A stretch of 64,000 nt of DNA from Eledone cirrhosa (lineage: Eukaryota): assembly GCA_964016885.1 (NCBI GenBank), contig CAXHJY010000320.1, positions 34,367 through 98,366 on the forward strand. The letters run 5' to 3'. The stretch's first letter is position 1; each line of letters starts with the position of its first letter. The notes under the pieces were generated by a model. It was not told the origin of the DNA. It worked only from the letters and a program-made list of their open reading frames with translations, and searched no databases. A program made the translations under genes and the position numbers. Positions 961-1,706 of this stretch are shown in pieces.

Positions 961-963
<3 letters not shown>

Positions 964-1706
964 CATTATGAAGAGAGAAGAAACATTTAGATATAATTAG
1001 TAATAAAATGTATCATACCTAAACTGTTCCTAAATTCCTCGACTACGTAGTTTCGTGGCATAAACAAAAACAATATATCAAAGATATAGAGTCCTTGCGA
1101 GGTCTGCCAACTTATCAAGAGGATACCTCATTTTACTAGTCTCAAGAACGCGTCTACACGACGTGAGAAAGAATCCCAAAAGGCGGAGGGGGAGATAGTC
1201 ACGCGATATAACGGTCGAGAAACAGAGCTAAGCCTCTTATAACCACGAAAAAAATACCACGGAGGCGGAGGGGGTATTCATATCGAGGCCGTAGAAGAGG
1301 TAGTGAAGAAGGCGAGAAGTATGAGTAATGGAAGCTTTCCAGTTGTCCCCACACCTCAAAGATTGCTCGACCAGAGGGAGTTATTAATACATTTAGAAAC
1401 ACACAGATACATGCGGACACACACATATATACATGAATGCATCCGCACCCAACTGTGAGTTAAGGGTGCCAACTTCACCGATGTTGCTCAATGAATGACT
1501 GGGACAGACCAATTCAGTTTGAACCAGACTGAACCAGTATCAGAGTTAAAAATACATTATGAAGAGAGAAGAAACATTTAGATATAATTAGTAATAAAAT
1601 GTATCATACCTAAACTGTTCCTAAATTCCTCGACTACGTAGTTTCGTGGCATAAACAAAAACAATATATCAAAGATATAGAGTCCTTGCGAGGTCTGCCA
1701 ACTTAT
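961..1706 (-). mobile_element. Retrozyme/Penelope pLTR-like element: 591-nt unit plus 155-bp direct repeat
   Basis: 961-1115 identical to 1552-1706; contains hammerhead; TA flanks; no ORF. Confidence 0.75.
1036..1123 (-). ncRNA. Type I hammerhead ribozyme, U3:A8 core variant
   Basis: Minus: tcctc-TTGATAA-gttggca...tgccac-GAAA-ctacgtag-TC-gagga; 5-bp helix I, palindromic helix III, GUC site. Confidence 0.8.

Follow-up and report, generated by a model that had tools for sequence, protein, structure and literature searches.

A 64,000-nucleotide stretch of Eledone cirrhosa DNA (hereafter, the window) contains a (TA)n/(TG) microsatellite that is broken by an insertion in which a full unit is joined to an incomplete second copy of itself. 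What is this insertion, which machinery placed it there and what kind of RNA served as its template? We conclude that the tract holds a young copy of an abundant non-coding mobile element with a hammerhead ribozyme motif, an element of a kind known from animals. Regarding its mode of movement, we consider it likely to be a recent 5'-truncated insertion of a non-autonomous, non-coding retroelement that acts like a selfish Penelope pseudo-LTR and is retrozyme-like. The features on which we draw are collected in Table 1.

Table 1. Coordinates of the insertion, its hammerhead and its flanks in the window.
Feature	Position	Strand	Remarks
Left flank, (TA)n/(TG) microsatellite, target	917..960	.	From sequence
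Whole insertion	961..1706	minus	746 bp, 1.26 units of 591 bp; non-coding
3' (downstream) copy of the 155-bp repeat	961..1115	minus	Exact repeat
5' (upstream) copy of the 155-bp repeat	1552..1706	minus	Hammerhead truncated
Fixed 3' end of the family	961..969	minus	80 nt beyond the predicted cut; enters (TA)n with short microhomology
71-nt hairpin	970..1040	minus	-21.0 kcal/mol; from the cut site to 9 nt before the 3' end of the insertion
Complete type I hammerhead	1036..1123	minus	Stem I of 5 bp, core UUGAUAA at 1118-1112, long stem II, GAAA, palindrome
Stem I, 5' strand UCCUC	1123-1119	minus	Descriptor
Core	U3 1118, U4 1117, G5 1116, A6 1115, U7 1114, A8 1113, A9 1112	minus	Descriptor
Stem II region	1111-1055	minus	57 nt; G10.1 (1111) pairs with C11.1 (1055)
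G12	1054	minus	Starts GAAA
Helix III palindrome ACUACGUAGU	1051-1042	minus	10 nt
C17	1041	minus	Predicted cut 1041/1040, GUC site; descriptor
Stem I, 3' strand GAGGA	1040-1036	minus	Descriptor
Predicted pseudoknot	1099..1129	minus	GAGGU 1129-1125 with ACCUC 1103-1099; duplex -6.9 kcal/mol
Cut-to-cut monomer (predicted)	1041..1631	minus	Exactly 591 nt; two GUC sites one unit apart
12-mer, first copy	1181..1192	plus	Exact 12-nt repeat of 1263-1274
12-mer, second copy	1263..1274	plus	Exact 12-nt repeat of 1181-1192
Right flank, (TA)n/(TG) microsatellite, target	1707..1954	.	From sequence

When the window was compared with itself, 961-1115 proved identical to 1552-1706 across 155 bp at an offset of 591, in agreement with the exact direct repeats reported in an initial annotation of this DNA, and no further copy or look-alike of the element was found inside the 64 kb. 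The unit is 41.6% GC and its longest stop-free frame has 86 aa. Read on the minus strand, the upstream copy of the repeat begins at the equivalent of A6 (1706), inside the hammerhead core as the annotation had noted, and is without the stem I 5' strand, U3, U4 and G5; it retains stem II, GAAA, the palindrome, a GUC site (1632/1631) and GAGGA. The window is animal-like DNA rich in (TA)n arrays and LINE fragments, and the insertion sits in a (TA)n/(TG) tract that has an unrelated repeat (545-944) on one side and a 5'-truncated RTE-like LINE on the other, with microsatellite flanks that would mask any target-site duplication. The neighboring repeat, unclassified and ~400-500 bp long (403-944), is 95% alike to 39061-39453 over its 545-944 part; the hammerhead element has its target in the (TA)n tail with which this repeat ends. 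Long inverted repeats that are MITE-like by shape were also seen in the window, at 36650-36957, 37087-37208 and 29365-29490 (~300, 120 and 125 bp).

The minus-strand core, the palindromic helix III and the GUC site recognized at first belong to a complete type I hammerhead. Positions 3 and 8 form a Watson-Crick pair, U3:A8, the remaining core positions are canonical, and in constrained folds three helices are possible around the core, with G10.1-C11.1 closing. With both strands scanned, a relaxed type I descriptor matched in 1 of 20,000 dinucleotide shuffles of the unit, while a palindrome of at least 8 nt in a descriptor-matching shuffle was found in 0 of 20,000. A second match of the descriptor, at 29785 on the minus strand of the window, was taken as chance: its helix III region has 4 nt and is non-palindromic, and it comes without a repeat. 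Searches of Rfam, which test membership in a library and not a biochemical criterion for a hammerhead, gave no match of the element to the hammerhead families at E values up to 10, and only sub-threshold microRNA-like matches. Hence, the identification comes from the descriptor and from the core sequence rather than from a curated model; the variant core and the long stem II may explain the missing match. The branched stem II of the initial annotation was not recovered, since none of the first eight folds listed, which lie no more than 2.5 kcal/mol above the best, has a branch; the region folds as one long hairpin joined through an internal loop to a short helix. U3:A8 is a natural variant, as had been stated: it is published for Schistosoma hammerheads (PMC4209133) and active in vitro (PMC3088659).

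Does the element belong to a family? Of 24 runs listed, 20 contain the stretch; these represent 17 organism codes and 16 studies, and four of the 24 (X1, X6, X20 and X22) were compared with one unit (1001-1591). Among the contigs of X1 (organism A), which may be the sample behind the window and then not independent, 1,473 match the unit, 524 of them at least 99% alike and 406 at 95-99%, with depth in 30 of 30 bins; the other copies expected by the initial annotation do exist. Their summed depth is ~100,000 to 480,000 per bin and that of single diverged contigs 6-15, from which we infer thousands of copies, the summed depth itself being no copy number. The copy in the window differs from the X1 majority at 1109, 1355 and 1390 (majority 93-97%), and with these three differences it is young. 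X6, another sample of organism A, covers the entire unit at a depth of 109-163, lacks variants common in X1 (such as the one at 1245, which stands at 28% in X1 and 0 in X6) and also holds diverged relatives at depths of 37 and 13. In X1 and X6 (depth in 30 of 30 bins each), the core, the cut site, helix III and the two strands of the predicted pseudoknot show no variant of at least 4%, so U3:A8 is the majority state of the family, and neither a C3:G8 relative nor a single change at position 3 or 8 was seen in the family data of these two samples. The double change had been read as a sign of selection for activity, which is plausible but not demonstrated, because U3:A8, as the majority state of a young family, counts as one inherited event.

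The copies also share an end point, since eight X1 contigs stop at 1552, which corresponds to 961, and carry (TA)n letters there, and this 3' end is the best-supported loose end among the 16 listed of 118 in X1. The 12-mers of Table 1 are GC-box-like and a possible promoter element; a diverged X6 contig has retained, in its loose end, a motif similar to the second of them. A wide spread among species, or horizontal transfer, is unsupported in organisms G and Q, the two compared of the 16 others, and looks like trace carry-over: raw reads of organism G (X22, a sample other than X10, the run that contains the stretch; 1,938 million letters) gave five reads, all less than 90% alike and only on the CA-rich stretch, and organism Q (X20) gave three contigs of depth 2-4, at least 95% alike, two of which continue into unlike sequence. 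The exact family motif had 0 matches in metagenome and viral contig collections; a looser pattern had one, in a 174-kb contig, which was taken as chance because its stem I has 3 bp and its C3 and A8 do not match. We found no description of the family in the papers and supplements searched; repeat libraries (Repbase, Dfam) and further supplements may list it.

How would such a copy arise? The insertion shows traits of the Penelope type: it is 5'-truncated, its partial tandem makes up a pseudo-LTR that carries a hammerhead, and it has a fixed end downstream of the hammerhead in a (TA)n target (eight contigs, 80 nt past the cut). The Poseidon-like distance from cut to end, together with the partial tandem, the 5' truncation and the (TA)n target, suggests that a Penelope-type protein moves the element in trans. 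According to the explanation that we favor, a head-to-tail parent would be transcribed on the minus strand, and the RT/GIY-YIG protein of an autonomous Penelope-like element, acting in trans, would nick (TA)n DNA. The cDNA would start internally, at a set point 80 nt beyond the hammerhead cut and beside the 71-nt hairpin, which is a candidate signal for the reverse transcriptase, and would copy a complete 591-nt unit followed by another 155 nt, so that it passes over the cut site two times. Since a 746-nt cDNA spans that site twice, the template was not a cut linear monomer, and we place about equal trust in an uncut multimer and in a ligated circle. The circular or multimeric template proposed at first therefore stands as far as a retroposed copy of more than unit length is concerned, but such a length does not single out a circle, as an uncut linear multimer also fits. 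Likewise, the minority letter at 1109 (~7% of X1 depth) is found in both 155-bp repeats, so one stretch of template was copied twice somewhere in the lineage, which does not say whether from an uncut multimer or a circle.

The minus-strand unit is strongly folded in linear form (z = -5.6; 0 of 100 shuffles as good). GAGGU lies one base 5' of stem I and ACCUC in the internal loop of stem II, and a pseudoknot of 5-6 bp between the two stems is possible, its probability of arising by chance being ~3.7% under generous registers, with no covariation behind the pairing. Alternatively, GAGG folds back on CCUC (1122-1119) in a hairpin of -2.4 kcal/mol that blocks stem I. In a diverged X6 relative, nine bases around GAGGU are conserved and the next 21 differ. 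We predict that this contact assists the hammerhead.

Two palindromes can also pair across units, giving a 10-bp helix III with a pairing probability of 0.82-1.0 in unconstrained folds, with flanks or none. The complete cross-unit hammerhead (cut 1632/1631) costs +4.5 kcal/mol with the pseudoknot uncounted, an energy-model result over a 600-nt span. Also with the pseudoknot uncounted, the active fold of the monomer lies at +11 to +12 kcal/mol in context, at +8.3 kcal/mol once the first cut has been made, and at +8.4 in the circle. A local constrained fold lies at +2.8 kcal/mol. In the energy model, the lowest-energy folds are never the active ones. The hammerhead is probably active, mainly as a dimer-type fold with the 10-bp helix III from two palindromes. 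The truncated upstream copy, which keeps helix III, the GUC site and the stem I 3' strand, is thus not necessarily inert in such a model. In a read-through transcript, the intact core would use the strand of the truncated copy as its substrate and cut at 1632/1631, a second cut at 1041/1040, through the weak monomer fold or in trans, would free the monomer, and ligation could then turn this into a circle that disfavors the ribozyme fold. Read-through of this insertion could therefore yield a monomer of exactly 591 nt, and any copy extending past 1642 (~1.15 units) could likewise release one. The stem I-stem II pseudoknot and the cross-unit fold with the site of the truncated copy are what we add to the initial annotation, as predictions only. 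In its boldest version, any copy of more than ~1.15 units in this young family of thousands would assemble a cross-unit hammerhead, with the pseudoknot as a switch, free the 591-nt monomer and re-seed circles; we find this doubtful.

A strict sub-case of the favored explanation is that the 591-nt monomer is excised, ligated and accumulates as a circular RNA, the obligatory template for rolling reverse transcription. It draws on two cut sites exactly one unit apart, on the 1109 letter shared by both repeats and on a stable circular fold that is strand-specific (z = -6.0 for the minus strand versus -0.6 for the plus strand, 30 shuffles each) and disfavors the ribozyme. The X6 contigs of similar depth (109-163) along the unit, without variants common in X1, are a hint only, with the library type off record, and circles of coral, mussel and axolotl retrozymes have been seen in northern blots (PMC7229834). 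However, the 1.26-unit genomic copy already contains every k-mer of the circle and contig joints cannot separate a circle from DNA; the joint 1591-to-1001, which lies inside the genomic repeat, was discarded as circle evidence. In addition, no array of two full units was seen in the contigs, which are short for such a repeat, and, according to PMC11167929, hammerhead mutants of Anolis Poseidon left insertion in vitro unchanged and no RNA-seq reads ended at the Poseidon cut site. An obligatory circle is thus possible, and we lean somewhat against it.

One could also argue that the 591 bp are the UTR/pLTR of an autonomous Penelope element, so that most copies would be truncated products of an ORF-bearing element, as ordinary pseudo-LTR debris. 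Its geometry and target do fit Penelope elements, and 24 open codons that extend over the cut site (1061-987, minus strand) begin with an ATG in the stem II 3' strand, which may be chance; the Poseidon ORF also starts at stem II. Some contigs leave the unit for other sequence, at 1519 in X1 (two contigs, 135 letters) and at 1019 in X6 (255 letters), and are candidates for related families or the autonomous partner; diverged subfamilies or contigs departing from the unit were also noted in X6 on 1158-1260 and 1251-1412. Against this view, the unit closes on itself at 1551/1552 with no ORF between the two hammerheads, and an X6 contig of depth 113.9 spans this point without a difference, its short side of 25 letters being under the 31-letter rule. 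Of the X1 records, a share of 0 continues into unlike sequence, a weak argument given that contigs break at branches. Pfam gave no family in any of the 23 stop-to-stop frames of at least 22 aa of the element, and no GIY-YIG or Penelope RT among 95 other frames of the window, only LINE domains. These were 95 of the 104 other listed frames, leaving out eight antisense frames of two RTE-like ORFs and one element frame already scanned, and one ORF was trimmed to its non-repeat part. An RT fragment at 23602 was rejected as a Penelope RT, being a decayed LINE. Hence, the RT and GIY-YIG ORF of an autonomous Penelope-like element was found neither in the element nor among the other frames scanned, this copy is not attached to a Penelope ORF, the arrangement that the initial annotation associated with an ordinary pLTR, and no autonomous partner was found in the 64-kb window, which has LINE-type RTs only. 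We judge the debris explanation improbable. Active retrozymes are defined by two complete cores and this copy has one; with no ORF either, we file it as a non-autonomous Penelope-type, retrozyme-like element.

The LINEs of the window deserve a description of their own. An RTE-like LINE is present in two copies (1955-3850 and 47399-50442, plus strand) that agree at 95% across 2.2 kb and whose ORF includes a PHD finger behind the RT. In the second copy, 787 aa stay open and an endonuclease frame lies upstream; the best relatives of this ORF in the protein collection are only ~52% identical. Another LINE RT frame (393 aa, RVT_1) covers 6174-8171 and 10647-10743 on the minus strand, its upstream part being split by a 2.5-kb (TA)n array. 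Further fragments lie at 16303-18193 (plus strand; a broken RT and a C-terminal cysteine/histidine region) and at 62963-64000 (plus strand; an endonuclease frame running off the window end).

The element might instead be a SINE-like passenger of a LINE of the RTE or CR1/L2 type, primed via a (UA)n tail, with the hammerhead as a relic or a 5'-end trimmer. RTE-like and other LINE RTs do surround it and both ends show microhomology to the (TA)n target, but there is no tRNA gene in the window, no similarity to any of its LINEs, and the partial-tandem structure and the cut-to-end distance are Penelope traits, which leaves this possibility very improbable. Finally, an assembly artefact or a local duplication could be invoked for repeats that are 100% identical and flanked by long, poorly assembled microsatellites, but the repeat starts exactly at the 3' end that the family shares, and contigs of another sample (X6) contain the head-to-tail junction, so we give this origin hardly any credence.

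The role of Penelope-type hammerheads is disputed, with one paper proposing circular templates and in vitro work on Poseidon finding the ribozyme dispensable. This family is young and abundant, its 3' end is fixed and its internal repeats are exact; genome data alone, in the form of variants specific to single copies and of copy lengths, could therefore separate a circular from a linear template. If the cross-unit reading is true, truncated insertions would not be dead on arrival, and the family would offer a direct test of circle versus uncut linear RNA copying by the Penelope machinery.

Comparing the element with known systems, we find much that is shared with the pseudo-LTR hammerheads of Penelope. 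According to PMC4209133, a U3-A8 core occurs in ~1,300 S. mansoni matches found through a Penelope element, the aligned row S. mansoni(3) reads UUGAUAA, and a circle-template model is reported for Penelope hammerheads, together with a palindromic helix III, cleavage as dimers and a helix II bulge; the U3:A8 core, UUGAUAA and the circle-template model are therefore already published. The type I fold, U3-A8, the palindromic helix III and more-than-unit copies are common to both, and the helix II bulge is shared with the D. virilis hammerhead. In the same source, Penelope-type hammerheads often cleave poorly and their minimal consensus has an extra base between A9 and G10.1. Unlike them, the element described here has no ORF, no such extra base, a 10-nt palindrome that is also able to close a 3-bp monomer stem, and a 57-nt stem II region with a predicted pseudoknot.

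Animal non-LTR retrozymes have been tied to Penelope pLTRs, with a proposed mobilization by Penelope (PMC7229834; bioRxiv 10.64898/2026.07.22.740005). Like them, our element is non-coding, has a GC content below 50% and one type I hammerhead per unit, and combines head-to-tail units with a strongly folded monomer. The 591-nt unit is larger than the 170-400 nt circles of invertebrate retrozymes in these two sources, and within the 51-972 bp range of the 2026 survey (bioRxiv 10.64898/2026.07.22.740005), which also reports that one of nine Xenopus dimer elements cut. It differs from retrozymes in its 1.26-unit copy with a single complete core and from most metazoan retrozyme circles in that its circle is predicted to block the ribozyme. 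When present, target-site duplications of non-LTR retrozymes exceed 4 bp, and these elements have no PBS or PPT.

Regarding Poseidon of Anolis carolinensis (PMC11167929), the hammerhead cuts at +26 and initiation occurs at +111 to +118, that is, 85-92 nt past the cut; the enzyme nicks AT-rich DNA, reverse transcription starts internally, unprocessed RNA is the dominant template in vitro and the ribozyme needs protein. Our element is similar in its insertion end at a set distance past the cut (80 nt), its stem-loop context and its AT-rich target. In contrast, Poseidon is autonomous and has a C3-G8 core, and its start is an AC-rich stem-loop without target homology, whereas the end found here has short (TA)n microhomology. 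Among the traits of Penelope elements are partial tandems, a truncated 5' end and targets of the (TA)n type (PMC8557442). The pLTRs and head-to-tail copies recall non-autonomous Chlamys elements such as MRC1, and the microsatellite target that masks the target-site duplication recalls the (TA)n-targeting Neptune/Naiad elements, while Naiads and most Chlamys, as that source describes them, are without canonical hammerheads. In Octopus vulgaris, repeat annotation lists 31 recently active Penelope-like families (PMC13282606). As for pseudoknotted hammerheads, a base-paired contact linking stem I with stem II is found in ~40% of representatives, in all three types, and is required for speed, and the natural U3-A8 covariation is active in vitro (PMC3088659); compared with these, the contact predicted here would belong to an animal retroelement and would be made through an internal loop in its long stem II.
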